This document shows positions 808 to 44,077 of a stretch of DNA of 64,000 nucleotides, one piece after another. Origin of the DNA: Candidatus Poriferihabitaceae bacterium (lineage in GTDB: Bacteria > Pseudomonadota > Gammaproteobacteria > Arenicellales > Poriferihabitantaceae); contig OZ242021.1 in assembly GCA_965204925.1 (NCBI GenBank), positions 268,000 to 331,999 of the forward strand. The letters are read 5' to 3'. A program made the position numbers and the translations under genes. A model generated the notes under the pieces. The model saw nothing but the letters and a program-made list of their open reading frames with translations, had not been told where the DNA came from and made no database searches. The stretch's first letter is position 1. Each line of letters opens with the position of its first letter.

Positions 808-2901
808 TCAGGCGGCAACCTTCACCGAAGCCACAATATTTTCCGGAACGGGAGCGTATTTCCTGAACTCCATCGTATAATTTGCCCGTCCCTGCGTTGC
901 GGAACGCAGTGCGGTCGCATAACCGAACATCTCCGACAGGGGCACTTCCGCCTTTATGAACTTGCCGCCCGGCGCATCCCCCATTTCGTGGATCAGACCG
1001 CGCCGCGAACTCAAATCCCCGTTCACGTTTCCCATATATTCTTCCGGTGTTACCACTTCCACCGCCATCATCGGCTCCAGTAACTGCGGTCCGGCAATTC
1101 TGGCGCCTTCCCGAAAGGCCATGGAACCGGCCGTCCTGAACGCATGATCGGACGAATCGACATCGTGGCAGGAACCATAGAACAGTGTTGCCCTGACATC
1201 GATCACCGGATAGCCGGCAACGACGCCCGACTGCATCGCGGACTGGATGCCCCTGTCCACTGCGGGGATATATTCCCTGGGTATCACGCCGCCCTTGATT
1301 TCATCGACAAATTCATACCCCGCCCCCTGTTCCAGCGGCTCAAGGCGGACGAAAACATGGCCATATTGACCACGCCCACCGGTCTGTTTGGCGTACTTGT
1401 GCTCCATTTCAACCGGTTCGGTAATCGTTTCCCGGTAGGCAACCCGGGGCTTGCCGATGTTGGCGTCGACACTGAACTCCCTCTTCAGGCGATCGACAAT
1501 GATTTCAAGGTGCAGCTCGCCCATACCGGAGATGATCGTCTGCCCCGATTCTTCATCGGAACGAACCCGCAAAGAAGGATCTTCCTGGGCCAGTTTGCCG
1601 AGGGCAATGCCCAGCTTCTCCTGATCGGCCCTCGTTTTCGGTTCAACCGCCCGGGCGATAACGGGGTTCGGGAATTCCATTTTCTCCAGCATCACGACGG
1701 AACCGGTTGCACACAGGGTATCGCCGGTCGTAACACTTTTCAATCCCACCGCCGCCGCTATATCGCCGGCATATACTTGCCTGACATCCTCCCGGTTATT
1801 GGAGTGCATCTGCAATATGCGTCCAATCCGCTCCTTTTTCCCCTTCCCTGGATTGATCACGGTATCGCCCGTCCTGATCGTTCCCGAATACACACGAAAG
1901 AAAACCAGTTGTCCGAAAAACGAATCCGACATAATCTTGAATGCCAGCGCAGAAAACGGCTCCCTGTCATCGGACTTGCGCACAATCCGCGTCTTCCCGT
2001 CTTCACCCACGCCGCCGATCGCCGGCACATCGAGTGGAGCGGGCATGAAATCAACGATGCCGTCAAGCAGCGTCTGGACGCCCTTGTTCCGGAAGGCAGA
2101 GCCGCAAAATACCGGGACAATCTCACCGTTCAGGGCGCGGATACGGATCCCCCTCCTGATTTCCCGCTCGCAAAGATCGCCATTTTCAAAATAACGCTCC
2201 ATCAACCGTTCATCCGCTTCGGCAGCCGCTTCCACGAGCCGCGTTCTGAGTTGATCGGCTTCCCCGGCCAGCTCTTGCGGGATATCGCTGTATTCGAACT
2301 CGACGCCCATGTTTTCTTCTTTCCACGAGACGGCTTTCATCCTGACCAGATCGACAACTCCCCTGAAATTTTCTTCGGCTCCGATGTTCAGCTGCATCAT
2401 GACCGGACTGGCGCCCAGTCGACTCGCGATTTGCCCGCTCACACGCTTCAAATCGGCCCCTGTGCGGTCCATTTTGTTGATAAATGCCATTCTTGGCACA
2501 TTGTATTTGTCGGCCTGGCGCCACACCGTTTCCGACTGCGGCTCCACTCCTCCTACCGCGCAAAACACGGCGACTGCACCATCCAGCACGCGCAGGGAGC
2601 GCTCCACCTCAATGGTAAAATCAACGTGTCCGGGAGTATCAATGATATTGATTCGATGTTGTTCCAGGCTCTTGTCCATACCGTTCCAGAAACACGTGGT
2701 GGCTGCGGAGGTAATGGTAATCCCCCTCTCCTGCTCCTGTTCCATCCAGTCCATGATTGCGTTGCCGTCATGCACCTCGCCGAGCTTGTGGGAAAGACCG
2801 GTATAAAACAGTATGCGCTCGGTCGTTGTCGTCTTGCCGGCGTCAATGTGAGCCATGATGCCGATGTTACGATAACGTTCGAGTGGAGTTTTGCGTGACA
2901 C
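808..2901 (-). CDS. fusA: Elongation factor G
   Basis: The 703-aa ORF contains [25 protein letters not shown] and DTPGHVDF and sits in str-operon context. The ORF opens with GTG at 2919. I prefer the second GTG at 2901 (reading [13 protein letters not shown]) because a GAGG lies about 8 nt upstream. The start is uncertain by 18 nt. Confidence 0.93.
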
Positions 2902-2939
2902 TGACCAGCCCTCGGGCACTTCTCAAAAATATCCCTGCA

Positions 2940-3410
2940 CTAGAACCTGTAATGAGAAAACGCCTTGTTGGCTTCCGCCATCTTGTGCGTATCCTCCCGT
3001 CTTTTGAAGGCGCTGCCCCGCTCGTTCGAGGCATCAAGCAACTCCCCGGCCAGCCTCGCCGTCATGGATTTTTCGGAGCGCTTGCGCGCGGCCGCCACGA
3101 GCCACCGCATGGCCAGCGCCATTTGACGGTTCGGGCGCACTTCAACGGGCACCTGGTAGGTGGCGCCGCCGACCCGCCGGCTTTTCACTTCGACGCCGGG
3201 GCTGACATTTTCAAGGGCCGTATTAAAAACCCCGACCACATCTTCCTTGCCGCGCTCCTTTATGATATCAAGAGCGCCATACATGATTCTCTCGGCAATC
3301 GACTTCTTGCCGTCCAGCATGATGACATTGATAAATTTTGCAACCGTCTGATCCTTGTACTTGGGATCGGGCAAAATCTTCCTCCTGGGGACTTCTCTTC
3401 GTCTTGACAT
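2940..3410 (-). CDS. rpsG: 30S ribosomal protein S7
   Basis: The 156-aa ORF begins [28 protein letters not shown] and ends ...AFSHYRF. It lies between rpsL and fusA. Confidence 0.95.
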
Positions 3411-3538
3411 CTCTAAAGTTTCGTTCCGGTCGCTCCGGGTTGAGGTTCGGCAACACCGTTCAGCAATATATGTGATTGCTGCAACCTGCCGCCACGGGCT
3501 TGTCCAGGCCTCAGTATTTGTAAACCAATTCCCGCGCT

Positions 3539-3913
3539 TCAGGATTTGGGACGTTTTACGCCGTATTTCGAACGGCCCTGGCGCCTGTCCGACACCCCGG
3601 ACGTATCCAGCGCTCCACGCACGGTATGATAGCGGACGCCCGGCAAATCCTTCACGCGCCCGCCTCTTATCAGCACCACCGAGTGCTCTTGCAAATTATG
3701 ACCTTCACCACCGATATAAGTGGTTACCTCCTGCCCATTGGTAAGCCGCACCCTGGCCACCTTGCGCAGCGCTGAATTCGGCTTCTTCGGCGTCGTCGTA
3801 TACACGCGCGTACAAACACCGCGCTTCTGCGGGCAAGCCTGCAAAGCGGGAACATTGGACTTCCTGACCTGCTTTTTTCGCGGATTCCGGACCAGTTGAT
3901 TCAGTGTCGGCAT
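3539..3913 (-). CDS. rpsL: 30S ribosomal protein S12
   Basis: The 124-aa ORF reads [14 protein letters not shown]...[21 protein letters not shown], the canonical S12 sequence. Confidence 0.96.
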
Positions 3914-4037
3914 GCGCTGGACTCTTTCAAAATCATTCTCAAACTAGTTCTGCCTGCTCCCAAAATACCACCAACCGTTCCCGCAAGAACCGAAATTCTG
4001 CCAGCAGTGAATAGCCCCGTACCCCAAAAGGCGCCGG

Positions 4038-4066
4038 ATTATAGGTCGGGGCAAATTCCCTGTCAA
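4038..4066 (-). promoter_or_regulatory. Consensus sigma70-type promoter for the rpsL-rpsG-fusA-tuf operon
   Basis: The minus strand reads TTGACA-gggaatttgccccgacc (17 nt)-TATAAT, matching both hexamers perfectly. It lies about 120 nt upstream of the rpsL start and downstream of the rpoC stop. Confidence 0.6.
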
Positions 4067-4148
4067 GGGAATAACCCGACAAAACCGCAATATCAGTAAT
4101 TGCCATTTTGCATTTTAATCCGGGGATACGACAGAGACGCCCGTTCCA

Positions 4149-8387
<4,239 letters not shown>

Positions 8388-16121: not shown

Positions 16122-16197
<76 letters not shown>

Positions 16198-16283
16198 TCG
16201 AGCCGACTTGTTGAATAAACCAACCTCGCTAACAAACTGTTCACTATACAACCCCTCCCGATAACCCGTAACACTCCCGGCAG

Positions 16284-16359
<76 letters not shown>

Positions 16360-16414
16360 AACCCGAACATCGCTTCCGCAAACCCCTGACTGCCACCAGT
16401 TCCACGGCGCCGAC

Positions 16415-16489
16415 TGGAGCGGGTGATGGGAATCGAACCCACATCATCAGCTTGGAAGGCTGAGGTTCTGGCCATTGAACTACACCCGC
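16415..16489 (-). tRNA. tRNA-Gly (anticodon TCC)
   Basis: The reverse complement reads GCGGGTGTAGTTCAATGGCCAGAACCTCAGCCTTCCAAGCTGATGATGTGGGTTCGATTCCCATCACCCGCTCCA. Confidence 0.9.
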
Positions 16490-16551
16490 ACCGGAAATTA
16501 CAATCAAATCAACCACTTCAACCTCTCGGTCACCTCAACATCCGGGCAACA

Positions 16552-16636
16552 TGGTGGAGGGGGGAGGATTCGAACCTCCGAAGGCTGAGCCAACAGATTT
16601 ACAGTCTGCCCCCTTTGACCGCTCGGGAACCCCTCC
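16552..16636 (-). tRNA. tRNA-Tyr (anticodon GTA), long variable arm
   Basis: The reverse complement reads GGAGGGGTTCCCGAGCGGTCAAAGGGGGCAGACTGTAAATCTGTTGGCTCAGCCTTCGGAGGTTCGAATCCTCCCCCTCCACCA. Confidence 0.9.
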
Positions 16637-31947: not shown

Positions 31948-34900
31948 TTATCGTGCCGACACTGACGTACAGGCGGTCACAGACATGACATTAGCCAACG
32001 TGCCGCATTTCTCCTTGAGCAGATGATCCGCCAGAGGAAAGAAGAAAGTGCTGATGGAATTGTAATCTATCACCGCTTGCGCGGCCTGCCCCTGACGCAC
32101 TCCCATCTCTTCCGCGACAATTTTTTCATATTCCTGCATTTCAGTTTTCTGCGCCTTGGTCCACTGGCCGCCCCGCTTCGTATTGTTGGTGAAGGGTGGA
32201 TTCATGATGACCACATCAAAGGCGTGTTGCGGGTTGAAGTCCTGACCGGAACCGGCCACATGCCGGCTGCCCGCCTGCTTCAGGGATCGTATGCCACCCC
32301 CCGTGATCGGAATTTCCTCGCCGAGCAACAACTCCAGCGACCCGGCTCCACGAATATTGCCTTTTGTATCGAATCCATGCGGCATGGAATAAACATTCAT
32401 GCACTCGAAATCCACCGATAGCCCGCCCAGGGTCATGTTGGACGCGGCCAGCTGTATGGCCTGATGATTGATATCCAGCCCGTAAATCGTGTTTTCGACC
32501 AGCTGCTTGTGCAGGTCGACAATATCCACTTGCGGGGCTGCTTCCTCAACCCGTTCCTTGATGGTCTTGAGGCAGGCCATGAGCAGCGTGCCGGTGCCGC
32601 AGGCCGGGTCGATTACGCGCAAATCGGCGGCTCTTGCCGGCGTCCAGTCGGTAAAATCCGGCGACAACGCCAGTCGCGCAAGCAGCAGCGCCGCCATGTT
32701 TTTCGTGTAGAACGCGCCCTCGCTCTCGGCCGTGTCGAGGATACGATGATACAGCGGTCCGGCATGATCGTAACCCAGTTCGCTCAACGAATCCGCAACG
32801 GCATTAGCGCAACTGACCAGACGATGCAATCCCGAAAAACACTCCACCTCATCCGGCAACGCCTCAAGCGCCGCAAGAGCCGGTTCGAATATCGGCGCAT
32901 AATCCCTGCGGAGAATTTTTCCCCACTCGTCCCGCAGTGTCCAGACCGGCTGGACCACCGAGCCGAATCCTTCCAGTCCCGCGAGACCCAGCGATTCAAT
33001 TCCACTCAGGCGCTTGTGCAACAGGCAGGCATTCGCTACCAATAGCGCGGCAATCCGGCATGTGTTTTTAGCCTCCTTGCCATCGCCAGTAAAGGATTTA
33101 CCGACCACGGGAGCCAGAGACTCTGCCGCGCCTGCCATATGGAACTTGTCCCCTGCCCACTGCACTGCATCCATGATATCGTTAGCGTTGAGTTGTCCGA
33201 ATGAACCAAGACCGGACGCATCTACTATACGGGTCATCAGGTTGCTGGCGATGTCATAACCGAAGATGTCTTCATTGACCTGATCGTGACGTTCCGCGCT
33301 TTCGGCATCGGCGGTATAAAACTCGGCCAAGGGATCCGGGACAGCGACTATGACACGTTGGGCAATTTCAGCAGCGAGTCTCCCGTCATGTGACTGAATA
33401 GCCCGCAGAACTTGTCCGATTACCCGATACCCGCTTTCATCCTGTTCGATATTTGCCAATGTAGCGGGCCCTCCGGAGATCACCACCGGCACGACGACAT
33501 AGCCGAGTTTTTTATCAGCGCCGCCGCGCCGCATGACCCGGCCAACGGCCTGCACCACATCCACCTGGCTTTTGCGGGGTTCGAGAAACACCACCGCATC
33601 CAGTGAAGGCACATCAACCCCCTCGGAAAACAGACGCACATTGCATAAAACTTCACTGGCCGCGGCATCACCGGAAACCGCGCGTAGTCTGTCCAGCGCG
33701 CGGAGTCGATCAAACGCCTTGTGACGGGCGTCCAGATGCTCTGCATGAACAGCCCCGGTTGTGGACGGATCACCCATTGTCCGGGTCGTACGTTCCTTGA
33801 CCTTCGAGTCCATCAACGCCTGTGCATACCATTTGGAGGCGGCAATAGTATTGCAATAACAGATCACCCGGCGCAGTCGGTCGGGAAGTTCGTCGGAACG
33901 GCCCTGGATATATCCGTTGAGCGCCAGTGAGGTTCCATATACACGGGTGATATGATTCTCAAGACCGGACTTGCGCACCGACCTGGCGGATGATTCCTCA
34001 ATGCCCTCCAAACGCCGTCTCATTTCAGCGCTCACCGGCGTATCCGGAATAGCCAGCACAACCACCCGGTAGTCGCATAACATGGGACGCCCGTCAATTC
34101 CCGGTGATTCGACGGCCTTTCTGAAGCTCAGGCGATAGAACTCCGGGCCGTAGGTATCCGTGTCATCCATATCGGACACTTCATAGCCCCTGGCGACCAT
34201 GCGCTGTTTGCTGCTCGCGGTATAGACTCTGGGGGTGGCGGTCATATACAGGCGTTTGGCAGCCTTGATATATTCATCGGAATGCACATCCTGGAATGAA
34301 AACTTGCCGGTAGCATCCTGCTTGCCCGCGCCGGTAGTCCAGTGGGCCTCATCGACCACGACAAGGTCAAAGGAACGGCTTCTTTCGTTCTGCCAGGATT
34401 CGGTGATGCGCCTGAGGGAATGGTGGGTGCAAAAAATGACCTTCACCCGGTCACTCGGCTTGAGAAACTTCTGAATCACCGAGGGATTGCGGGTAACCCG
34501 GCAGTTCAGTTCCAGCAGTCCCGCTTCCTCATCGGAGGACTGTCCGGCCGTGCTGTCCGAGCAAACAATCAGCGTGTTCATGTGCCGGCTCGACTGGCGC
34601 AGCCATTCCTTGCGCGCCTGACCGACGAGGGCAATACTGGGGGCGACAAACAGGATATTTTCCGCCTGTATGGCTTCAGCAATCTTCAGCGCTGTAAAAG
34701 TCTTACCGGTCGCGCATGCCATGACCAGCCTGCCGCGGTCGTGATGGGCGAAGCCATTGACACAGGCATCAATCGCTTCCTGTTGACGGGGTAGAGGATT
34801 ATGCGGTTTGCGTGTGGCCGTGTAATTGAGGGGGTCTTCGCGGTGCTTGTAGTAAAACGGGATGTATTTCCCCTCGTGCGAACGAAGATGGCTCTGGGCA

Positions 34901-35328
34901 TTGTTATTGATGCCACAGGTCGCGACAAGCATGGGATATTCGAAGACTCGTTGCCCTTCACTCTGCCCTGCGGAGGCAGAGAGAAATCCCTGTATATCCC
35001 TGAGCGACAACTTGCGCTCCTCCCGCCACAGCTTGCACTGAATCGCCACAAGCCCACCGGATTGCAGTTCACCGACGAGATCAATGCCCAGATCCTTTCT
35101 TTCACCCGATCGGGATTGCGACCAGTCGGCAAAGCGCAGCACGGAGCGCATCTCGTATTCAGGCAGCGTTGGCAGAACGGTTCGCACAAGGGTTTCAAAC
35201 TGCTCACCCTTGTCGCGCTCGGTCAGCGATGACTGGCGGATGGCATCAATTGCATCGCCAATGGACTGCGTATCATCGTCATAAACCGGCCGGGCCGAAA
35301 AGAGCGTCGATTGTCCCTGTGTAGCCAA
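31948..35328 (-). CDS. Type ISP-like restriction-modification fusion (Mrr-type nuclease, SF2 helicase-like ATPase, gamma-class N6-adenine methyltransferase); apparently lacks a TRD
   Basis: The 1126-aa ORF has an N-terminal D...QCK nuclease core (DLGIDLVGE...VAIQCKLW), helicase motif I (MACATGKTFT) and motif II (VVVDEAHW). Methyltransferase motif I is VIDPACGTGTLL and motif IV is VIMNPPF. The ORF ends about 85 aa after NPPF. Only a TTG start is available. Confidence 0.75.
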   Translation of the reverse strand: MATQGQSTLFSARPVYDDDTQSIGDAIDAIRQSSLTERDKGEQFETLVRTVLPTLPEYEMRSVLRFADWSQSRSGERKDLGIDLVGELQSGGLVAIQCKLWREERKLSLRDIQGFLSASAGQSEGQRVFEYPMLVATCGINNNAQSHLRSHEGKYIPFYYKHREDPLNYTATRKPHNPLPRQQEAIDACVNGFAHHDRGRLVMACATGKTFTALKIAEAIQAENILFVAPSIALVGQARKEWLRQSSRHMNTLIVCSDSTAGQSSDEEAGLLELNCRVTRNPSVIQKFLKPSDRVKVIFCTHHSLRRITESWQNERSRSFDLVVVDEAHWTTGAGKQDATGKFSFQDVHSDEYIKAAKRLYMTATPRVYTASSKQRMVARGYEVSDMDDTDTYGPEFYRLSFRKAVESPGIDGRPMLCDYRVVVLAIPDTPVSAEMRRRLEGIEESSARSVRKSGLENHITRVYGTSLALNGYIQGRSDELPDRLRRVICYCNTIAASKWYAQALMDSKVKERTTRTMGDPSTTGAVHAEHLDARHKAFDRLRALDRLRAVSGDAAASEVLCNVRLFSEGVDVPSLDAVVFLEPRKSQVDVVQAVGRVMRRGGADKKLGYVVVPVVISGGPATLANIEQDESGYRVIGQVLRAIQSHDGRLAAEIAQRVIVAVPDPLAEFYTADAESAERHDQVNEDIFGYDIASNLMTRIVDASGLGSFGQLNANDIMDAVQWAGDKFHMAGAAESLAPVVGKSFTGDGKEAKNTCRIAALLVANACLLHKRLSGIESLGLAGLEGFGSVVQPVWTLRDEWGKILRRDYAPIFEPALAALEALPDEVECFSGLHRLVSCANAVADSLSELGYDHAGPLYHRILDTAESEGAFYTKNMAALLLARLALSPDFTDWTPARAADLRVIDPACGTGTLLMACLKTIKERVEEAAPQVDIVDLHKQLVENTIYGLDINHQAIQLAASNMTLGGLSVDFECMNVYSMPHGFDTKGNIRGAGSLELLLGEEIPITGGGIRSLKQAGSRHVAGSGQDFNPQHAFDVVIMNPPFTNNTKRGGQWTKAQKTEMQEYEKIVAEEMGVRQGQAAQAVIDYNSISTFFFPLADHLLKEKCGTLANVMSVTACTSVSAR

Positions 35329-35430
35329 TATATCTCCAGCGCGCTGTAATGATAGTTGGTATCCAAATCAATATCGGGTTTTCCGGCAGGCGCTATATTA
35401 CACTCAACCCGGACACATTGCGAACCTGAT
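35278..35430 (-). repeat. Right arm of the inverted duplication (relic of an ATPase-ankyrin 3' end directly upstream of the Type ISP-like gene)
   Basis: See 28586-28736. On the minus strand the order is ankyrin-gene 3' end, spacer, Type ISP start, the same order seen on the plus strand at 28.6 kb. Confidence 0.8.
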
Positions 35431-35453
35431 TCTCGCTGGAGTAAACTTGCGTG

Positions 35454-37019
35454 ATGGGGAAAGATGGCGGACAGCTGAACGAGGAACAACGCACAGCGCT
35501 GGATGTGTTCACCAGAGATGGCGACCGGGGGTATACCCATATTTTCGTTGGGCGGGAAGCCGAATTGCAGTTGATCGGATCGCGAATCAGCAAACTTGTT
35601 GACAAACGGCACAGCCACCGCCCCGGCGCAGATTTGACAGTAGTTGTTCAGGGGGCGCCGGGCGCCGGTAAATCAGCGCTCCTCGAGAAAATTGAAGAAG
35701 ATTGGCCATTGGGAGAAAAGGGAAAGCCGGTAGCCATCCGAATTGCCGCAAGCGCGCTGAAATTGCCCATGGGGGAGTTGCTCGCAATCATTTCGCGCCA
35801 AGTGAACAGCGATTCGGCTATCCGGCGAACTCTGGCGAGTTTCCGTTCGATATCGGTTAATCCGGCCGGCATCGCCAATTTTACGGCGGATATGGATTCC
35901 TCGCAGCCAGGGGGGAAATCACTCACCCCGATTATTTTGCTGTTCGATGAGATACAGAGTGTACTTGCGGATGGTGTCCTGGAGCAGTCACGGGAGTGTT
36001 TGAGGGATAATCTGGAGTTACTGCACACGGGCGAACACGGAGTACCGATATTCCCGGTCTATGGAGGGCTTGCCAACAGCGCCGACCTGTTGCGCATGGC
36101 AGGTCTGACGCGGCTTGCCATGGGGTCGGAGTTGACGCTGCCGGGATTCCGTGATGACGAGATGAATGAACTGATGATGCGCTTCGTGGATAAGCATCTG
36201 TCCTCGGCAAAGCCGTCACAAGCTGTTATCGGCTGTTGGAGCGAGGCCTTTCGCCGCGACAGTCAGGGCTGGCCGATGCACTGCCGCAACTTCCTCATTG
36301 CATTATGCAAGGAAATTCGCGAGAAGGACTGGCAACCGCATGAGGCCAATCTCGACACAGTGCGCATGTACGCGCAACAGTTACGCTTTATGTATTATGC
36401 ACAGCGTATGCAAGGGGCGCTGGACGAAAGGTTCGCTCTGGTATCCAGGGCGCTGGAGGCGATGCGCCGGGGCGCCCCGAAGAAACGCGGGCAGATTGTC
36501 CAGTTGGTCGCAAAAGCGCACCAGGACAGTTTGGGCGAGGATTCTGGCTGGAGTCCCCTCCCTCATGGCATGACCGCAGAACAGGCTTTTGATGCGATGC
36601 TGCATTCCGGGATCGTACAGAAAACCGGCAAGGGAAAATTCTCCTGTCCGATTCCATCACTGGCCAGTTATATAGCGGCCAGGGCAACACTGCCGCCGAG
36701 TCCGTTGCATGAGGCGGTACTGGATGACGAGGCTGCGGATATGGATCATGCGCTTGATTTATGCCGGGATGACGAAGAGCGGGCGAAACTGCTTCATGCC
36801 GCGGACATACGCGGTCGTACGCCGTTGATGCTGGCGGTTGAGCTTGGCATGGCGGCAATGGTTGAACATCTGGTAAAAGCAGAGAGCCGCCTGCCTGCCG
36901 CGCTGCGGTCGGTGAAATCCGGGGACAGCGCCGGACGAACCGCGCGGGATTACGCCACCGCTTCGGGGGATGATCGGATGGTGGCTCTGCTGAACAGAAT
37001 CCAGCCTCATATCGACTAA
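35454..37019 (+). CDS. P-loop NTPase with C-terminal ankyrin repeats (paralogue 2)
   Basis: The protein is about 521 aa and collinear with 27036-28622, with VVQGAPGAGKSALL, IILLFDEIQ and GRTPLMLAVELGMAAMVEHLV. The C-terminal half is much more similar to paralogue 1 than the N-terminal half. A GTG at 35451 is an alternative start. Confidence 0.8.
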   Translation: MGKDGGQLNEEQRTALDVFTRDGDRGYTHIFVGREAELQLIGSRISKLVDKRHSHRPGADLTVVVQGAPGAGKSALLEKIEEDWPLGEKGKPVAIRIAASALKLPMGELLAIISRQVNSDSAIRRTLASFRSISVNPAGIANFTADMDSSQPGGKSLTPIILLFDEIQSVLADGVLEQSRECLRDNLELLHTGEHGVPIFPVYGGLANSADLLRMAGLTRLAMGSELTLPGFRDDEMNELMMRFVDKHLSSAKPSQAVIGCWSEAFRRDSQGWPMHCRNFLIALCKEIREKDWQPHEANLDTVRMYAQQLRFMYYAQRMQGALDERFALVSRALEAMRRGAPKKRGQIVQLVAKAHQDSLGEDSGWSPLPHGMTAEQAFDAMLHSGIVQKTGKGKFSCPIPSLASYIAARATLPPSPLHEAVLDDEAADMDHALDLCRDDEERAKLLHAADIRGRTPLMLAVELGMAAMVEHLVKAESRLPAALRSVKSGDSAGRTARDYATASGDDRMVALLNRIQPHID

Positions 37020-37171: not shown

Positions 37172-37347
37172 TTCATATGAACAGGGCGCCAGTTCCGCCC
37201 CGGCAACAGATGCAAATCACCCGGTTTCCATTTATACCGGATTTTCACTATGATAGGAATACAGCCGTGTCCGTGTCTGCTTTTGACGGCCAATACCCGC
37301 ATACCAATAGATCAGGAGAACAAGCGATTGCAGCCATGCCATACCTC
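37172..37347 (+). repeat. Leader repeat R, copy 3
   Basis: attcatatgaac...ggtttccatttataccggattttcactatgataggaatacagccgtgtcc...cccgcataccaatagatcaggagaacaagcgattgcagccATGccatacctc. This copy leads into the five-gene operon. Confidence 0.85.
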
Positions 37348-38097
37348 AAGGAAATCAGGAAGGGATATAAACAGGTCCAGCAAAATAGCGTCAACTCACA
37401 AAAAGTCGTGAAAATGGCGTTGCAATATGAGAATTGGAAAAACCTCCCGGGAAGTATTACCAATAAAATTTGCGATCACAACGATTATCCCGACCTGGAC
37501 GCTGACTCGGACAAACCTGTACCAGCTACTTCACAACTGGGCCGGGAATGTCAAATGCAGAGAAATACCCAAAGAATCGACCTGGCTTACACCTTGCACA
37601 GATATAGACCAACTGCCTCTTCTCTACCATTTGACCCGCTAGACGCCGGAGACTTCCCCAGAATCTGGGAGTTGCTTGCAAAGGACAAAAACAGGAGCAA
37701 ACAGGAAAGCAAGAGATGGGTTACTACAGTCCCTTTAACCCTCCGATCAGAACAGGATTTTCGCGACCTGATATGTCGTTTGGGTATGTACCACTGGCAA
37801 GGGACACCGCAGGACACCCCTGTCTTTTGCCTGAAATTGAGTGGAATCAACTGTGTAAAACCCAACGCGCTGGACGCGGATTTGGCATTCTACTTCCATC
37901 AAACACCAGAAAAAGCTCCCGGTCGAACGAGAAATCTGAAAACAGGCCGACCGGATATGGAGGAATGGCTATGCCCGGAGAAAAATCAAGCTTCCATCAA
38001 ATGTGTAGGCGTCTGCTTTATCAGAAAAGACATCAAAATTAATATGGGTGCTTATTTCGGCAATTGCGTGAAAAGGATACAAGGCAACAAGGGGTAG
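37336..38097 (+). CDS. Hypothetical protein A (no recognisable domain), first gene of the five-gene operon
   Basis: The ORF spans 37177-38097. I prefer the ATG at 37336 because it is the conserved MPYL start of leader R. The protein is about 253 aa and I recognise no motif in it. The start is uncertain. Confidence 0.55.
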   Translation: MPYLKEIRKGYKQVQQNSVNSQKVVKMALQYENWKNLPGSITNKICDHNDYPDLDADSDKPVPATSQLGRECQMQRNTQRIDLAYTLHRYRPTASSLPFDPLDAGDFPRIWELLAKDKNRSKQESKRWVTTVPLTLRSEQDFRDLICRLGMYHWQGTPQDTPVFCLKLSGINCVKPNALDADLAFYFHQTPEKAPGRTRNLKTGRPDMEEWLCPEKNQASIKCVGVCFIRKDIKINMGAYFGNCVKRIQGNKG

Positions 38098-38105
38098 AAA
38101 ACTGT

Positions 38106-39113
38106 ATGGACAAGGAGCAAATAATCAGGCAATTCTTTCAAAACGAGGAGGGTGCGATTTCGTATGTTCGAAACCGTCTGCTGGGTAATTTCGACAAAGC
38201 CCCGCCGCCAACCAGTGACCGTTTTATTGAAGAATTTCCGACCGATATTTTGCAACACCTGGTACTGTCCGATACCCTTGTGGACAAAACTGTTTTCTGG
38301 AATGCCTGTTTCCGTTTATTCAAGGAATGGCGCGCCCCCCGGGAAGCCGATGCAAACAGTGCGGCTGGCTTGAGTGAGTTGGTCTATATGATTCGCCAAT
38401 TCCACCGCCGCCATGAAGATATTTTCCGGGAAGAAAAAAGACGCTGGGAAGAAGAGTTGAAGAATCCCGAACTTCTGCCAGCGAGCACGGATGGCAAGCC
38501 GGAGAGAAATATGGTGTATGCCCAGAATTTGAGTCTGGTGCATATCTGGAACCTGTGGCCAAAGAATAGATGGTCAAAACTGTATGAACTTATTTTGGAA
38601 AAAGAAAGTGTAAATAACGACACCCGATTTGAGATCATGCTGATTACCGCCCAACATTTGGATTGGGATGCAACCAAGACCAGGCGATTGTTTCAGTGGG
38701 CCTTGGAGCGCCGGAATCATCTGCCGAAAACTTTCTACAACGAGTATTTTTTCAACCGCTTATACCTGTGTGGTCCTCAAGCAAATAATACAGATGTAAA
38801 TGAACGTAAAGACTGCCAGAACAAACTGGTTAATGATACCCTGAAGGCCTGTGTATATCTGTCCGACGCTCTGTCCAGGGAACAAAAAAAGACTCTCGGC
38901 AAGGCTTTGCTTGAAGCCAGCGAACTGTTCGATTTGAAAAGTTTCCAATGTCTTGCCAGGCGAACAAGGTCGTTACTGAAGCAGGAACTGGACAAACTCG
39001 CCCAACCGCCTTCTGAAAAGGAAATCAGTATATGCAAGCCTGTTACTGCCCCCTTGAGCGGAAGTGGATACATGAGTAATCAGTACGCTGGCGCACTGCC
39101 AGCGGCCGCCTGA
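38106..39113 (+). CDS. Hypothetical protein B (predicted mostly helical, no recognisable domain)
   Basis: The ORF spans 38064-39113 but opens with TTG. The first ATG, at 38106 (MDKEQIIRQFF), lies 8 nt after the stop of A. Codon usage looks coherent and the gene is tightly spaced within the operon. Confidence 0.6.
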   Translation: MDKEQIIRQFFQNEEGAISYVRNRLLGNFDKAPPPTSDRFIEEFPTDILQHLVLSDTLVDKTVFWNACFRLFKEWRAPREADANSAAGLSELVYMIRQFHRRHEDIFREEKRRWEEELKNPELLPASTDGKPERNMVYAQNLSLVHIWNLWPKNRWSKLYELILEKESVNNDTRFEIMLITAQHLDWDATKTRRLFQWALERRNHLPKTFYNEYFFNRLYLCGPQANNTDVNERKDCQNKLVNDTLKACVYLSDALSREQKKTLGKALLEASELFDLKSFQCLARRTRSLLKQELDKLAQPPSEKEISICKPVTAPLSGSGYMSNQYAGALPAAA

Positions 39114-39117
39114 AACA

Positions 39118-41931
39118 ATGTCTGATCAACCCGCTCAATTCGTGTCTTTCTATTCCTACAAAGGCGGGGTGGGACGTAGCACGGTGCTGGCTAATCTTGC
39201 CTGCCGGCAAGCTGTACAAGGTAGCAAAGTTCTGATTATCGACCTTGATCTGGAAGTTCCGGGACAGCACAGCAGTAGGTTATTCTCGAATAATCCGATC
39301 GCCGATTCGGTAATAAAAGGAGGATTTGTTGACCTCTGTGCCGCTTGGCAACAACACCATGAGAAAGCTGGTGATCAGGTCTATGAATGGGATTTGCGGG
39401 ATTACATGCTGCGCAGTACTTTTCCGGATCAGTTGTTCGGAGCTGACAAGGGAGAAATATTCCTGATGCCTGCCGCCAGAAGGCCGGATACAGGCTATGC
39501 CGAAAAACTGGGCAGGCTCGATTGGCACAAATTTTTTTCACCGTCAATCAAGGGCTACCAGTTACTTGCCGCCTTGCAGCTGTTTTGCAAGATTGAAGAG
39601 TTCGACTGGGTGTTTCTGGACTCCAGGACGGGACTCAGTGATCCCTATTACATGACCACTTCCTGGCTGAGTAATACCGTTGTTTGTTTCAGTACGCTGA
39701 GTCGGCAAAGTATTGAGGGATGCCGCTATGCCATGGAGCGTATCATGACTGAAGACTCCATACACAAATATGGCGAAAAGCGCGTACTGCCCGTAGCCAC
39801 CCTGATTCCTCCGACCAGAAATTTTGAGGCCAACAACAGAATAAAAGCCATCCTTGCTAATGAGTGGCCGGAAATTGACAACCGTTTCGTCACTGAATTC
39901 CGGTATGACGATGCGCTGGCTCTGGAAGAAAAGATACTGGTAGCAGAAGATGGGTGGGAAAGCTCGGATTTCGGCAAATCATTACAGGAATTGGCGGCTG
40001 CTTTGGAGACCCGCGATTCTTACCTGATCAGTCAAGAGCGGATGCGTCAACGCTTTGGAGAGAGAACCCTGAAAAATCCTTTCCCCAACCTTCGTATCGA
40101 GTACTGGAGTCCACCGGAGGTTGCCAGCCATTATTCTGTTATTTACCCGGAGATTGAAGAACAACTGACAGCCTTTCAACCGGTTATTGTTTATGGTTCC
40201 CGGGGAACGGGCAAGACGACCATGGCCCGCTATTTTGACTATCAAGCCCAACTAATCGTTTTCAGGGAAAAATACCAACGTACACCAACCCCTCGGGAAC
40301 TCCGTTATCTTGGTTTGTGGATTCGTCAGGACAGTGATTTTCTCAAGGCATTCAATGTATCTGACGAAGATAAACAGAAGAATTACAGCGCCTTGTTTGG
40401 CTTGTTCTTTGATATGGTTGTGTTGCGCAAGGCATTACAGGCCATGGAAGAGACCGGAGGACTGGCTGGCTGGGTCAAATCAACTACGAGATTATTCCGC
40501 ATTTTGCGCCGCGAAATCGGCGTGGAAGTTAATGAAAACTGTGGTATGGAGGGATTCCTGGAACATCTGGAAACCCGCTTGTATGAGATTCGAGCCTATA
40601 TCAACAACCCTAATTGCATCAAAATCCCTTACCTGTTCCAGAGTAATACCTTGATGAAGTTATTGGCAGAGCAACTAAAGGAAAGGGAGAATTTCCATTT
40701 CGTGGTGTTTGTCGATGAGGTCGAAAACTATGCAAGCCATCAGCAGCAAATGCTGAATACCCGGGTCAAAAATGTCAAGGAAAGCGATTCCGTCACCTAT
40801 AAACTGCTTACCCGTAATGACGGAACGAAAACCACGTTCACAGATGCAGACGATCAGGAACTGGAGGTGACCCACGACTATCGCGCCTGTTATCTGGATG
40901 AAGGGATCGGATTTGATGAATTCAGAAAACGCGCGGAAACCCTGGTGAATCGTTATGTTTCCCATTCAGTCCAGTTTCGGCATCTCGGCAAGGCGCAAGA
41001 CTTTCTGGGACATCTGACACCGCAGGAAGAGGCGCGAATAATCTGTGGGAGCCGTGGAAACAAACCGTTGGTCAAACACTTGGGCGAGCAACATTCCCTG
41101 GAGGCGGACCATGCCTTGATACAATGGATGCAAAAGGAACCCAGCCTGTTGCGCCAGACGGTCGCTGTGGTAATAGTCAATCAAGGTAAAGGCGCCGATA
41201 CCGTCGCAAGGAACATGCACGCCAACACTTCTACCGCGCAGGACTGGTACCACAATTATTCGAGAGGAGCCTTGTACTGGTTGTGCACCTTATACAGAAA
41301 AGGAAAAACATATTCCGGCTTTAATGATATTGCCGGTATAGCAGGCGGGAATATCCGTGTAGTCGTGGATATATTTTATTCGATTTTTGCGGAGTGGATT
41401 AAAGAGACTGAAGAGAAAGGGAAGCAGCAGCCATTCAGCTATCAACTGCAAAACCGCTGCATCCATGAACTGTCGGAAACCTGGTTCAGGAAGCTCGACC
41501 GCTTCCGGCCCACGGAACACCGGTTAAACCGGCTGATAGAGCGCCTCGGCAATCTTTTTTCCGCGATACATAAAAGCCCGAGTCAGGGAGAACCGGAAAT
41601 CAATCATTTCTCGACAAATGGGGAACTGGACGCCGGTACACTGAAATATCTGAAAATTTGCCTGCGGGAGAATTTGTTGAGATGGCTGCCCAGCAACAAA
41701 CAAAAGTCATCCAGCGATTACCTGCCAGACGCCTTTCAGCTTAACCCGTGTTTTGCCCCACATTTCGGTATTTCATGGCGGAGGAAAAAGAAGCTCACAC
41801 TTGCGCCCGACGATGTCCGCATGCTCTGTTCGGGCACAGATGAGGGTTGGAAAAGGACCCACTCACGGGTCGAACGGCAATACCATAATGAAAGACACAG
41901 CGACCACTCCCAAATGACCCTGACAGTTTAA
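39118..41931 (+). CDS. Double P-loop protein C: N-terminal ParA/MinD-like domain with a KGGVGR variant Walker A, plus a central AAA/ORC-Cdc6-like ATPase and a large C-terminal region
   Basis: In this 937-aa protein, aa 11-22 read FYSYKGGVGRST (a deviant Walker A with Arg in place of the second Lys). KVLIIDLDLEVPG and WVFLDSRTGLSD are ParA-like. A second Walker A, VIVYGSRGTGKTTMA, lies at aa ~356-370 and a Walker B, FHFVVFVDEVE, at aa ~526-536. Confidence 0.75.
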   Translation: MSDQPAQFVSFYSYKGGVGRSTVLANLACRQAVQGSKVLIIDLDLEVPGQHSSRLFSNNPIADSVIKGGFVDLCAAWQQHHEKAGDQVYEWDLRDYMLRSTFPDQLFGADKGEIFLMPAARRPDTGYAEKLGRLDWHKFFSPSIKGYQLLAALQLFCKIEEFDWVFLDSRTGLSDPYYMTTSWLSNTVVCFSTLSRQSIEGCRYAMERIMTEDSIHKYGEKRVLPVATLIPPTRNFEANNRIKAILANEWPEIDNRFVTEFRYDDALALEEKILVAEDGWESSDFGKSLQELAAALETRDSYLISQERMRQRFGERTLKNPFPNLRIEYWSPPEVASHYSVIYPEIEEQLTAFQPVIVYGSRGTGKTTMARYFDYQAQLIVFREKYQRTPTPRELRYLGLWIRQDSDFLKAFNVSDEDKQKNYSALFGLFFDMVVLRKALQAMEETGGLAGWVKSTTRLFRILRREIGVEVNENCGMEGFLEHLETRLYEIRAYINNPNCIKIPYLFQSNTLMKLLAEQLKERENFHFVVFVDEVENYASHQQQMLNTRVKNVKESDSVTYKLLTRNDGTKTTFTDADDQELEVTHDYRACYLDEGIGFDEFRKRAETLVNRYVSHSVQFRHLGKAQDFLGHLTPQEEARIICGSRGNKPLVKHLGEQHSLEADHALIQWMQKEPSLLRQTVAVVIVNQGKGADTVARNMHANTSTAQDWYHNYSRGALYWLCTLYRKGKTYSGFNDIAGIAGGNIRVVVDIFYSIFAEWIKETEEKGKQQPFSYQLQNRCIHELSETWFRKLDRFRPTEHRLNRLIERLGNLFSAIHKSPSQGEPEINHFSTNGELDAGTLKYLKICLRENLLRWLPSNKQKSSSDYLPDAFQLNPCFAPHFGISWRRKKKLTLAPDDVRMLCSGTDEGWKRTHSRVERQYHNERHSDHSQMTLTV

Positions 41932-42890
41932 TGCTCGAAGAGTACGAACCTGTGGAGCAATCCTACCCGAAAATAGCCGGCTTGCATCCCTGGAGCCTGT
42001 TACTGACCGGAGGTGAGGAAACGCAGATTGAACCCCGATGTGGAGAAACTGTCACGAAAATCTCCGGTCACTTGCCTGCAAATTGCCAGCATATCTGCAT
42101 TACCCGCCAACCGGACAGGGGAATGGAGGGCAAATTTCTTTTTGGCAAAAAGGGAAAAACAGAGGAGGCGTCTGCCCAGGATTTCCGCGAAGGTTTTGAA
42201 AAAATCACGGAGCGGGCTCTTTCCGGGGAGGACGCAATTAACATATTAATGGACATCACCAGTCTGGAACTGGATGTAATCCTTCATCTTCAGAATTTAT
42301 TCAACCAACCGCGCAGTAGTGTACAAAACCTGTCTGCGCTGTACTCATCCCCGATGCAGTATACAGGCCGTGACCAGTACAAATTACGGATCAATGAAAT
42401 TGCACAACCTCCCGGTTACATCTCTTTGCGTATGGATGACTCCTCCTCTTATCCCCATGTTTTTATATTGGGATTTGACAAAGGCAGGGCCTTGCGATTC
42501 CTGGAGTTATTTGATGAGTGGAGAGATCATGAGAAATATGCCATTATTATTGACCCCTCGTACATGCCGGACGGAGCCGAAATAGCCAGAAAAGCAAATT
42601 CATGGATTAAGGAACTGAAGCCTGAGCAAATTTTTTCAATCGACCGGCTCGAACCGCACAAGCTCCGTGAAAAGCTGAAAGAGCTTTATCAATCCAGCAA
42701 CCGGTTGGACATAATACCGCTGGGACCGAAGCTGATGCTTCTGGGAATGACCCAATTCTATTTTTCTTTGGCTGAAGCAGAGCGGAATAATATCCGCATC
42801 CTGTATGATTTTCCACAGCCGACTGCTGACGCCAGCACAGGTATCAGTGGGCATTATCTGTTCAATTGCCATGGTCACAAGACACTATGA
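41931..42890 (+). CDS. Hypothetical protein D (alpha/beta pattern, no recognisable catalytic motif)
   Basis: This 319-aa ORF starts on the last base of gene C's stop (TAATG), and its stop overlaps gene E's start (ATGA). Repeated hydrophobic beta-strand-like segments occur (INILMDITSL, HVFILGFD, YAIIIDPS, LDIIPLGP). Confidence 0.6.
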   Translation: MLEEYEPVEQSYPKIAGLHPWSLLLTGGEETQIEPRCGETVTKISGHLPANCQHICITRQPDRGMEGKFLFGKKGKTEEASAQDFREGFEKITERALSGEDAINILMDITSLELDVILHLQNLFNQPRSSVQNLSALYSSPMQYTGRDQYKLRINEIAQPPGYISLRMDDSSSYPHVFILGFDKGRALRFLELFDEWRDHEKYAIIIDPSYMPDGAEIARKANSWIKELKPEQIFSIDRLEPHKLREKLKELYQSSNRLDIIPLGPKLMLLGMTQFYFSLAEAERNNIRILYDFPQPTADASTGISGHYLFNCHGHKTL

Positions 42891-44077
42891 ATCTGGCACA
42901 GCATTTTACAATGAACTGTCATGCAGATTTAATGGTCCGTGCCATGTTCCCGTTCACCGGCAACGGAAAATATATAAAGGGAGTTGACCTCGGCGCGGGA
43001 AGGGGAGCGCTCCTCCACTCAGCCACCCGAACATGGAAAGGAGCCAGCTTTTTGGGGGTGGATATTTCCCGGCCTTTATTGGACACCATAAAACAACACT
43101 TCCCTGCAGTTCGGTTCTGTTATCTGGACTTGCTGAGTAAAAAGTCGCTGAAATCAGGGATACTGGCAGATTTATCCGAGTCCCATGACGTTGCGGTGTG
43201 CAATCCACCTTTCCTGAACCATAGGAACGACAAACTGTTTCGTGACCTTTGTCACATGACCAATTTGAAGGACTGTCGCAAGATGTCTATCGTTACGTCC
43301 GACGTCATATTCTTGCTGCACAATTTACGCCTGCTGAAAAAGGGCGGCGCTCTCGGCATTATATTGCCTGACGGCCTGATTACCGGTGAGAAATTCCGGA
43401 TACTGCGTCAAAGTCTGCTGTCCAACCATCGGATTGAAGCCGTTATTCAATTGCCCGACAATTCGTTCGCCGGCATTGAGGCCAGGACGCATATTTTAAT
43501 TTTGCGGAAAGATATGACATCAACGGAAAAGGTGAAGATCATGCGTTCGGGCGCCAGCAGTATAACGGAGGAGTTGGAGGTTGACGTTTCCGGTCTGGAG
43601 CAGCGAATGGATTACTCATACTGGCGCTGGAGATTGGCCGCCTCAAAGGCGAAAGCCTTGACATTGGCAGAAATTGGCGCAGATATTAATCGCGGTACAA
43701 GGCCCCGAGCATTTTTTGAAAGTTCAGGGATTGAATATTTCCATACCATTGGGCTGCCTGTAGCCGCCAGACCTGTCAATTTCCCGAGATCCAGGCCCCG
43801 GGAAGTCAGGATGGCGGAATCACAGGATATATTAACGGCCAGAGTCGGGAAACGGTGTATCGGTAGAACAGTACTCGTAAACAGAGGGAGTCTGCCAATA
43901 ACGGATTGTATTTATCGTATCCGCATACCCGAATGCTGGGTCAATAAAGTATGGCAATCATTCAATTCTGACAGTGCGCGGGACTGGTTTTCAGCGCATT
44001 CCCACGGTGTTTGCGCCCAGGTTATCAGCAAGTCGGATTTATTGAATTTTCCTGTCGATTACTGCCGGGAAGAATAG
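42887..44077 (+). CDS. N6-adenine DNA methyltransferase, gamma class, with C-terminal TRD-like domain (TaqI/Eco57I-like architecture)
   Basis: Motif I is GVDLGAGRGALL and motif IV is DVAVCNPPF. The C-terminal ~170 aa resembles a single HsdS-type target-recognition domain (ADINRGT...DILTARVGKRCIGR...CIYRIRI). I prefer the ATG at 42887 (ATGA overlap with D); the ORF track starts it at 42866. Confidence 0.8.
   Translation: MNLAQHFTMNCHADLMVRAMFPFTGNGKYIKGVDLGAGRGALLHSATRTWKGASFLGVDISRPLLDTIKQHFPAVRFCYLDLLSKKSLKSGILADLSESHDVAVCNPPFLNHRNDKLFRDLCHMTNLKDCRKMSIVTSDVIFLLHNLRLLKKGGALGIILPDGLITGEKFRILRQSLLSNHRIEAVIQLPDNSFAGIEARTHILILRKDMTSTEKVKIMRSGASSITEELEVDVSGLEQRMDYSYWRWRLAASKAKALTLAEIGADINRGTRPRAFFESSGIEYFHTIGLPVAARPVNFPRSRPREVRMAESQDILTARVGKRCIGRTVLVNRGSLPITDCIYRIRIPECWVNKVWQSFNSDSARDWFSAHSHGVCAQVISKSDLLNFPVDYCREE

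Follow-up and report, generated by a model that had tools for sequence, protein, structure and literature searches.

We analyzed a 64,000-nucleotide stretch of contig OZ242021.1 from Candidatus Poriferihabitaceae bacterium (positions 268,000 to 331,999 of the forward strand), referred to as the window, with a focus on gene C, the third gene of a five-gene operon, A-B-C-D-E (Table 1). The operon is tight, all of its junctions being either overlapping or at most 8 nt long: A and B are separated by 8 nt, B and C by 4 nt, and C-D and D-E overlap as TAATG and ATGA, respectively. Gene C is an intact open reading frame (ORF), and our analysis confirmed that it encodes a genuine conserved protein in which a ParA/MinD-like domain carrying the KGGVGR motif is fused to an ORC-CDC6-like ATPase. 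It is accompanied by two small genes upstream, A and B, and by a CARF6-clade protein and a DNA methyltransferase downstream, D and E.

The full-length architecture of C is common to about 91 cluster representatives with 33-100% identity, and both of its nucleotide sites are invariant in a 34-sequence alignment (N-terminal domain: Y12, S13, G16, G17, G19, R20, D42, D44, D168 and G172; ORC-like half: G360, R362, G363, G365, K366, T367, D533 and E536). Because so many full-length representatives share it and the site residues do not vary, the architecture lies far beyond chance. An AlphaFold2 (AF2) model of C, built from the family alignment, had a mean predicted local distance difference test score (pLDDT) of 86.7 and a predicted template modeling score (pTM) of 0.66. 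The five motifs quoted in an initial annotation, which had been made from the letters of the window and a list of its ORFs, were all recovered where it had placed them (Table 1), and the second P-loop stands 345 residues downstream of the first. Nine C homologs are listed without the KGGVGR motif (P0014, P0023, P0029-P0031, P0040, P0061, P0064 and the fragment P0033); their public gene calls miss the first 15-45 residues, most likely through wrong start codons, and do not point to a motif-less subfamily. The fused architecture was found on no plasmid of the plasmid collection, a scan of viral contigs gave no match to the family, and scans of genome contigs with the family alignments yielded, apart from one distant relative, nothing but chance matches to the pattern.

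Table 1 Features of the gene C operon, its neighborhood in the window and the canonical cassettes used for comparison. Coordinates are those of the sequence named in the second column.
Feature	Sequence	Coordinates	Strand	Remarks
Gene A	window	37336..38097	+	253 aa from ATG 37336; public call from GTG 37267 is 276 aa
Gene B	window	38106..39113	+	335 aa from ATG 38106; ORF opens at TTG 38064
Gene C	window	39118..41931	+	Intact ORF, ATG to TAA, 937 aa
KGGVGR-class ParA/MinD-fold domain, C residues 7-300	window	39136..40017	+	NF047398, PDC-M28B, Foldseek
Deviant Walker A FYSYKGGVGRST, C residues 11-22	window	39148..39183	+	Signature Lys K15 kept; R20 at the P-loop Lys
Switch I / Walker A' IIDLDLEVPG, C residues 40-49	window	39235..39264	+	D42, D44 invariant
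Walker B / switch II VFLDSRTGLSD, C residues 165-175	window	39610..39642	+	Class-specific second Arg, R170
PF24389 ORC-CDC6-like module, C residues 320-895	window	40075..41802	+	NTPase core with P-loop, then a helical region and, at the C-terminus, a basic alpha/beta region
Second Walker A GSRGTGKTT, C residues 360-368	window	40195..40221	+	Arg R362 within the P-loop
Second Walker B VVFVDEVE, C residues 529-536	window	40702..40725	+	D533, E536 invariant; E534 nearly so
Conserved basic alpha/beta region, C residues ~820-895	window	41575..41802	+	SEPEINHF, NKQKS, ISWRRKKKL
Gene D	window	41931..42890	+	319 aa, CARF6-clade Rossmann-like sensor protein
Gene E	window	42887..44077	+	N6-adenine DNA methyltransferase, NPPF motif
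BglII-type type II restriction-modification pair	window	28873-30410	+	N6_N4 methylase 28873-29799 abuts BglII-family endonuclease 29799-30410
Mrr nuclease + ResIII/SF2 helicase + N6-methylase (MmeI/Eco57I-like) fusion	window	31948-35328	-	1126 aa
P-loop/ankyrin paralogs, ~525 aa	window	27036-28622, 35451-37019	both +	66% identical; GAPGAGKS; C-terminal ankyrin repeats
Canonical cassette L009	Burkholderia gladioli plasmid			No methylase annotated
Canonical cassette L010	Moraxella osloensis plasmid p4			N6 methylase
Canonical cassette L013	metagenomic contig			N6 methylase
Canonical cassette L015/L016	metagenomic contigs	1804-7466		C5 methylase, plus Vsr
Canonical cassette L017	K. pneumoniae HS11286 pKPHS2 (record)	31850-36926		KPHS_p200520-550; N6 methylase

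The KGGVGR ParA/MinD-like domain

Structural and profile comparisons agreed with the initial annotation in assigning the N-terminus of C to the ParA/MinD fold. In a Foldseek search with the C model, the roughly 300 N-terminal residues matched Soj, MinD, FlhG, FleN, BcsQ and NifH in the PDB with target-normalized template modeling (TM) scores of up to 0.79; the top matches listed included Soj (8jmj, 0.79) and MinD (1g3q, 0.77), with E values of about 2e-7 and a probability of 1.0. At the level of family models, Pfam AAA_31 (32.5 bits, cut-off 27) and CbiA (28 bits, cut-off 25.4) were passed, only over residues 7-48, and Pfam PF10609 scored 26.1, under its cut-off of 27.1. The NCBIfam model NF047398, which describes a KGGVGR-motif variant AAA ATPase, scored 127.6 bits, well over its cut-off of 90, across residues 7-209 (profile positions 3-189 of 190), and the equivalog models stayed short of the level expected of ParA/MinD orthologs (NF041546, 24.8 against 180; TIGR01968, 23.9 against 212.9). 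Lying above the NF047398 cut-off and far below the ortholog models, the domain is therefore a member of a ParA/MinD-fold class that is named but functionally unannotated, and is not an ortholog of ParA or MinD. This accords with the suggestion that KGGVGR marks a recognizable sequence class without an established function; we found no paper describing it, and papers that contain the motif hold no description of the domain. The PADLOC model PDC-M28B also matched C (residues 5-246, profile positions 127-352 of 438, E = 1.3e-25). PDC-M28 is an unpublished PADLOC candidate, and none of its further component models matched any neighbor of C.

The defining substitution of the class, an arginine in place of the normally invariant lysine of GK[ST], was equally clear. 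In a profile alignment with MinD (4V03) and Soj (1WCV), R20 falls in register with the Walker A lysine: KGGVGR-S lies on KGGVGK-T, IIDLDL on the switch I aspartate pair and DSRTG on DSPAG, with IIDLDLEVPG opposite LLIDADI of MinD and LLVDLD of Soj, and VFLDSRTGLSD opposite ILVDSPAGIE of MinD. Arginine occupies this position in 34 of 34 aligned homologs and in all 111 of the motif-bearing sequences that were retrieved, lysine in none. Its codon in C is CGT, at least two substitutions away from any lysine codon, and the arginine is therefore not a single-base error. Other parts of the site are retained as well, K15 being nearly invariant and R170 and T171 kept in at least 90% of the 34 aligned sequences.

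Outside the C family, the domain recurs in proteins of very different composition. It stands N-terminal to NB-ARC/STAND, TPR, TIR and CHAT modules, which is the usual position of an effector, and is also found fused to an FGE-sulfatase; several of the STAND/NB-ARC-TPR, TIR and CHAT-type proteins have a second P-loop some 500 residues further on. Across these C-terminal architectures three motifs recur, FYSYKGG[VT]GR[ST], DxDLE[AS]PG and D[SA]RTG, which we derived from the matches themselves and which are not those of the NF047398 curators. Among 29 KGGVGR proteins of other architectures, FYS[YFW] was present in 29, D[SA]RTG in 26 and the switch I pattern in 25, and C has all three. That these motifs are conserved at an overall identity of about 30% speaks in favor of a functional site and against decay.

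The ORC-CDC6-like module

The second half of C is matched by Pfam PF24389 over the entire length of the model (284.4 bits against a cut-off of 27, E = 2.7e-84, model positions 1-571 of 571). The initial annotation had left some 400 residues after the second Walker B unassigned; that description is superseded, since the full-length PF24389 match places these residues in the same family. Its description of the second P-loop as conventional was borne out, with Walker A and Walker B intact, invariant and inside PF24389. In a 10-sequence alignment that combines fused and standalone PF24389 proteins, GxRGxGKT is invariant, and D533, E534 and E536 all become invariant once the standalone members join. 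As to its likeness, two possibilities had been raised, ORC/Cdc6 and BrxC. The first agrees with the family name of PF24389, 'ORC-CDC6-like', and the second fell away, with no BrxC match in PADLOC and no PglZ, BrxL or helicase in the operon.

In the AF2 model, the ORC-like half has a core of five strands, followed by a helical region and an alpha/beta unit at the C-terminus. The conserved basic region at residues ~820-895 may form a winged helix with which the module would bind DNA at this end, and residues 702-911, which include it, are still matched by homologs on Klebsiella plasmids.

The partner proteins A, B, D and E

Gene A encodes an orphan alpha/beta protein found only alongside KGGVGR-fused C. 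Its homologs begin at the position equivalent to 37336, and the family holds 60 cluster representatives, all of about 245-280 aa. Pfam, NCBIfam and PADLOC gave no match to A, and no catalytic motif was recognizable in it. Its AF2 model is a confident fold (pLDDT 82.4, pTM 0.79), for which Foldseek found no significant match in the PDB (best E = 0.45) or BFVD (best E = 0.06). Nor was there a significant result when A, D and the ORC-like part of C were searched against the PDB by sequence and by profile.

The ATG of gene B lies 8 nt after the stop codon of A. A gene of 266-367 aa fills this position in six of six complete loci, with 18-28% identity only and six invariant columns, so that B is conserved in position only; Pfam, NCBIfam and PADLOC gave no family match, and our impression is of a helical protein. 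The C-termini of B in the window (39070-39113) and in three other loci (L001, L002 and L004) mostly form a short tail of small hydrophobic residues just before the start of C (…ALPAAA, …LKMAA, …AVAVA, …LLEVA). This tail could be a partner-binding peptide.

Gene D belongs to a family of 774 representatives at 50% identity. It matched the PADLOC CARF6 models with a best E value of 2.4e-13, and these models were matched by 28 of 28 aligned proteins (D and 27 distant family members), down to E = 6e-119; what 'CARF6' means here rests on the PADLOC model names. The conserved motifs LLDITS and PLGPKPM/GTKP include DITS and GPK elements that are consistent with the CARF signature of Makarova et al. 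(PMC4012209), in which a polar S/T follows strand 1 and a basic residue follows strand 4.

Gene E matched Pfam N6_Mtase and Eco57I and, over its full length, the PADLOC model MTase_II PDLC03285 (E = 9.8e-62). Its ORF opens at TTG 42866, and ATG 42887 is the probable start. Searches of Pfam, NCBIfam, PADLOC and PDB profiles detected no nuclease family in any of A to D, and no cognate restriction endonuclease was found beside E.

Recurrence of the operon and an exchange of modules

The A-B-C-D cassette recurs at five other loci, one of them on a Methylomonas chromosome, whose genomic contexts are unrelated. Its flanks are housekeeping genes that differ at each locus, and no integrase, relaxase, rep or other element gene was conserved around it in the loci we examined. 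A methylase is present at four of the five other loci (three downstream, one upstream), hence in five of the six complete fused cassettes when the window is included.

The ORC-like half and D homologs also occur together without any KGGVGR domain. At five independent loci (L009 to L017, Table 1) we found what we refer to as the canonical cassette, in which PRTase-CE (PF24390) is followed first by an ORC-CDC6-like ATPase that stands alone (PF24389, ~620-670 aa) and then by a CARF6 protein, with a methylase at four of the five. The CARF6 gene lies directly downstream of the ATPase gene both in the window, as D, and at L009, L010, L013, L015 and L017. PRTase-CE proteins keep DD and GSG motifs and match the PADLOC models for retron type III-A PRTase effectors. 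Matches of the pKPHS2 type (L017) were present in 129 Klebsiella plasmid records, mostly conjugative, among which the pKPHS2 locus itself was inspected; on this conjugative plasmid of the IncFII/IncR type, the four-gene cassette neighbors repA and its genes are annotated as hypothetical only. At L015/L016, the triad is flanked by a divergently oriented C5-cytosine methylase and a Vsr mismatch endonuclease, beside a type I restriction-modification (R-M) gene; the triad thus pairs with different methylase chemistries.

Comparison of the two cassette forms showed that the PRTase gene, the probable effector, is replaced by a contiguous block directly 5' of the ORC-like module, consisting of A, B and the in-frame KGGVGR domain. 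PF24390 genes were found in none of the KGGVGR-fused loci (the window and five others), and neither A nor B matched PF24390. We also considered A or B as a diverged PRTase and rejected this, as there was no profile similarity to PRTase-CE (A, hhalign probability 0.1%). The window ATPase shares 19-22% identity with the standalone members. Of 774 D-family representatives, 36 matched a profile built from the lineage of the window at E ≤ 1e-30; going by these scores, we take the 36 to be that lineage, which would make it a minority branch. A further standalone ORC-CDC6-like homolog, 21% identical to C residues 330-920, was seen at ~64983-66725 of Acinetobacter phage MD-2021a contigs (H16/H17), two records of ~90 kb labeled as phage; it was the sole gene of the family found in the phage collection.

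Genomic setting of the window operon

The operon ends a defense island and is immediately followed by ilvD. GC content is 0.48 across the cassette (38001-44000) and about 0.55 in the flanks (0.54-0.57 on both sides), a drop consistent with recent horizontal acquisition. Flanking direct repeats or an adjacent tRNA gene, as marks of insertion, were not found at the cassette, and promoter and terminator scans stayed at chance level. The view that C sits in a defense context was strongly supported by the methylase E, the CARF6 protein D, the recurrence of the operon, its R-M neighbors and its low GC content.

Besides the operon, the island contains two P-loop/ankyrin paralogs, a BglII-type R-M pair and a protein that fuses Mrr, helicase and methylase domains (Table 1). 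The fusion resembles the single-polypeptide restriction enzymes of type ISP/IIG. The paralogs, which bracket both R-M systems of the island, have weak AAA_16/NACHT matches and may be a STAND-like pair of defense genes. We considered the paralog next to the operon (35451-37019) as a part of the system and rejected it, a homolog being annotated at no other cassette locus. At 30595-31965, a 307-aa ORF on the minus strand with RTX nonapeptide-repeat matches (E = 1e-33) overlaps a 407-aa ORF on the plus strand without a family match. Four tRNA genes (Tyr, Gly, Thr and Trp) at 16122-16636 on the minus strand lie well outside the island and are unrelated to the cassette.

Interpretation

We put the probability at about 50% that C is the central two-NTPase (nucleoside triphosphatase) subunit of a horizontally acquired, methylation-linked (R-M-like) anti-phage operon that constitutes an effector-swapped variant of the PRTase-CE cassette. 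Within such an operon, we read the KGGVGR domain as the output, or effector-coupling, module of a methylation-linked defense switch. This reading of the domain follows from its occupying the place of the effector gene, from its N-terminal, effector-type position in STAND/NB-ARC-TPR, TIR and CHAT proteins, and from the listing of MinD/ParA-like domains among effector domains by Kaur et al. (PMC7159879). Exchange with a PRTase effector gene, as read from the gene order, points to a role in output, not in sensing.

In the mechanism we propose, methyltransferase E would mark host DNA as self. The ORC-like ATPase would engage DNA through its basic C-terminal region and, together with its ligand-sensing CARF6 partner D, would make up a switch driven by ATP, whose assembly would take place on DNA that is foreign or unmodified, or upon infection. 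That C and D act together is suggested by the published fusion of STK, AAA+ (Arg within the P-loop) and CARF domains; the PADLOC model CARF6--CARF_STK_AAA weakly matches both C and D-family proteins (E of about 1e-4). Assembly of the switch would then bring the N-terminal ParA-like domains together. With the signature lysine, the Mg/catalytic aspartates and the Ser/Thr kept, and with arginines at the P-loop lysine and in switch II, these domains probably still bind nucleotide and pair into a sandwich dimer that is long-lived and turns over slowly or not at all. The dimer would be the output of the system, standing in for the PRTase effector of the canonical cassette, and would recruit or activate A as the effector candidate and B as a variable adaptor or regulator, in a putative engagement that we liken to that of MinD with MinC and MinE.

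Several points weigh against this interpretation. No nuclease or other toxic domain is recognizable in A to E, and no cyclase or other ligand-generating enzyme is evident for the CARF6 protein. One complete fused cassette, L004, has no adjacent methylase, and neither does the canonical L009, so that methylation may be optional. As to the putative ORC/Cdc6 fold, a PDB profile search with the ORC-like part of C gave generic P-loop-level matches only, and in a Foldseek search with the whole C model the 50 matches listed all fell on the ParA domain. No transcript evidence was found, the single RNA-type sequencing run having no coverage and being uninformative. For the nucleotide-bound dimer, our expectation is by analogy with Lys-to-Arg P-loop mutants such as RecA K72R and SopA K120R, which bind ATP and hydrolyze it poorly. 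We found no experimental characterization of the cassette, nor, for any member, experiments that show defense, methylation, ATP binding or dimerization, and Kaur et al. (PMC7159879) predicted MinD/ParA-like domains of this kind to be inactive. Here we differ from these authors, as the pattern of conserved site residues would fit a remodeled, working nucleotide site better than a relic. The initial annotation had suggested a dimerization or DNA-surface switch for the ParA-like part, which agrees only in part with the literature, where such domains are regarded as effectors and predicted to be inactive.

The prediction of inactivity leads to a different explanation, in which the KGGVGR domain is a dead MinD/ParA mimic that acts as a poison or decoy once the ORC-like switch is activated, blocking division or segregation in an abortive infection. 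It would do so by binding to the membrane, to the nucleoid or to the partners of the host's MinD/ParA, with A and B as accessory or immunity proteins. Such domains are listed as 'cell-division-related effector domains' and predicted to be inactive (PMC7159879), the canonical P-loop lysine is absent from every member, and the domain both holds the effector position of STAND proteins and replaces the PRTase effector here. However, K15, S/T21, D42, D44, D168 and the two class arginines are kept across architectures at about 30% identity, which would be atypical of an inert mimic, and scores of 24-25 bits against MinD/ParA equivalog cut-offs of 180-213 are so low that mimicry of partner-binding surfaces is not evident. 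The constant presence of the conserved A and B would also go unexplained. Given this conservation of the site and the obligatory A and B partners, we consider a dead mimic less likely. Dimers of ParA and Soj formed with ATP bind DNA non-specifically, and the ParA-like domain could instead be a nucleoid- or DNA-anchoring scanning module that places the ORC-like/CARF6 sensor, leaving A as the effector (a new nuclease or toxin fold) and B as an inhibitor or adaptor. The top structural match is a Soj-DNA complex (8jmj), A is well conserved, confidently folded and without a known match, and the idea agrees with the DNA-surface switch of the initial annotation. We nevertheless find it doubtful: in the canonical cassette, standalone ORC-like proteins function with no anchor of this kind, A lacks a recognizable catalytic motif, and KGGVGR domains occur elsewhere without a DNA-related partner, as in TPR, CHAT and FGE-sulfatase fusions.

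Homologs of ParA and of ORC/Cdc6 have classical roles in segregation and replication initiation, which raises the question of whether the operon serves immunity at all or is a partition, replication-initiation or epigenetic module of an integrated mobile element, with E as an orphan regulatory methylase. Besides these classical roles, the canonical relatives are frequent on conjugative plasmids, one of them beside repA (pKPHS2). But the fused cassettes show no conserved element genes, their housekeeping flanks vary by locus, and neither flanking repeats nor an adjacent tRNA was found; the linkage is to CARF6, to DNA methylases, to a retron-type PRTase effector in the relatives and to R-M neighbors. 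A non-immune role is thus, in our estimate, quite unlikely.

Returning to the effector-swapped defense operon, a wider generalization can be put forward tentatively. Rather than a dead ParA, the KGGVGR domain may be a distinct class of P-loop module whose active site has been remodeled around two arginines and that serves as a proximity-activated output of STAND/ORC-like immune switches and that, with A and B, makes up a three-part effector interchangeable with a retron-type PRTase. If this is true, it would amount to a new effector mechanism for methylation-linked immunity and would provide a handle on the many KGGVGR-STAND/TPR/TIR proteins. Bacterial conflict proteins of the STAND, TPR, TIR and CHAT types commonly begin with a KGGVGR ParA-like domain, for which there has so far been no more than a label in databases and the prediction that it is inactive. 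The operon is compact and genetically tractable and puts the domain, with two dedicated partner genes, into the slot of a retron-type PRTase, which allows the putative effector role of the domain to be tested directly; the effect of replacing the P-loop lysine by arginine in a SIMIBI ATPase would come to light as well. In addition, it exposes a widespread, plasmid-borne and apparently uncharacterized cassette of PRTase-CE, ORC-CDC6-like ATPase, CARF6 protein and methylase. Either form of the cassette, if understood, would add a CARF-dependent, cyclase-less, methylation-linked system of immunity or plasmid competition.

Comparison with known systems

Parts of this operon are already catalogued, namely the domain models NF047398, PF24389, PADLOC CARF6 and PF24390, as is the general idea of 'inactive' MinD/ParA-like effectors (PMC7159879). 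A limited literature search returned no relevant paper on the KGGVGR motif, PDC-M28, CARF6, PRTase-CE or either form of the cassette, and a paper on CoCoNuT had no bearing on the operon. With the MinD-MinC-MinE and ParA-ParB systems, the window shares the fold, the signature lysine, the switch I aspartate pair, the Walker B aspartate and the presence of two small partner genes. In contrast to MinD and ParA, its domain has arginine both for the P-loop lysine and for the switch II proline, and unlike MinD it has no C-terminal membrane helix and runs into an ORC-like module; neither A nor B is related to MinC, MinE or ParB.

The NTP-dependent conflict systems with MinD/ParA-like effector domains surveyed by Kaur, Burroughs, Iyer and Aravind in 2020 (PMC7159879), together with NF047398 and PDC-M28B, share with C the domain class, its motif and its placement ahead of repeat modules or of a second NTPase in conflict proteins. 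However, these descriptions deal with AP-ATPase/STAND, kinase and TPR fusions in VMAP-type systems and make no mention of a fusion to an ORC-CDC6-like ATPase within a methylase/CARF6 operon; neither ORC nor Cdc6 appears anywhere in the paper.

BREX and the BREX-related DUF499/helicase R-M-like systems (PMC12839542) follow the same logic as the window operon, combining a large ATPase of the ORC/Cdc6-STAND type, winged helix-turn-helix (wHTH)-like DNA-binding parts and an N6-adenine methyltransferase within defense islands. They differ in having no CARF6 partner and no ParA-like domain, and the operon in turn lacks PglZ, BrxL, BrxA/B, a helicase and a nuclease partner. We rejected an identity with BREX, as C had no BrxC/PglY match in PADLOC at E ≤ 0.01, no PglZ or BrxL gene was a neighbor, and PglX scored 26-29 bits against 500. 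An identity with MADS was rejected too: mad8 matched with 19 bits (E = 1.6e-4) in the P-loop region only, MAD2 scored 36 bits against 720, and other mad genes were absent.

The fusion proteins of STK, AAA+ (with Arg within the P-loop), CARF and wHTH domains described by Makarova et al. in 2014 (PMC4012209) likewise combine a P-loop-Arg ATPase with a CARF6-type domain. These are single polypeptides with a kinase, whereas the window encodes the two parts in separate genes, has no kinase and adds a ParA-like domain and a methylase. The canonical PRTase-CE cassette shares with the window the full-length PF24389 module, with its GxRGxGKT P-loop, DExE motif and conserved C-terminal region, as well as a CARF6 gene directly downstream, an adjacent N6 (or C5) methylase, a tight operon and a location in mobile or island DNA. 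The difference lies at the effector end, where the window has, in place of the PRTase, genes A and B and a fused KGGVGR domain of about 300 aa.

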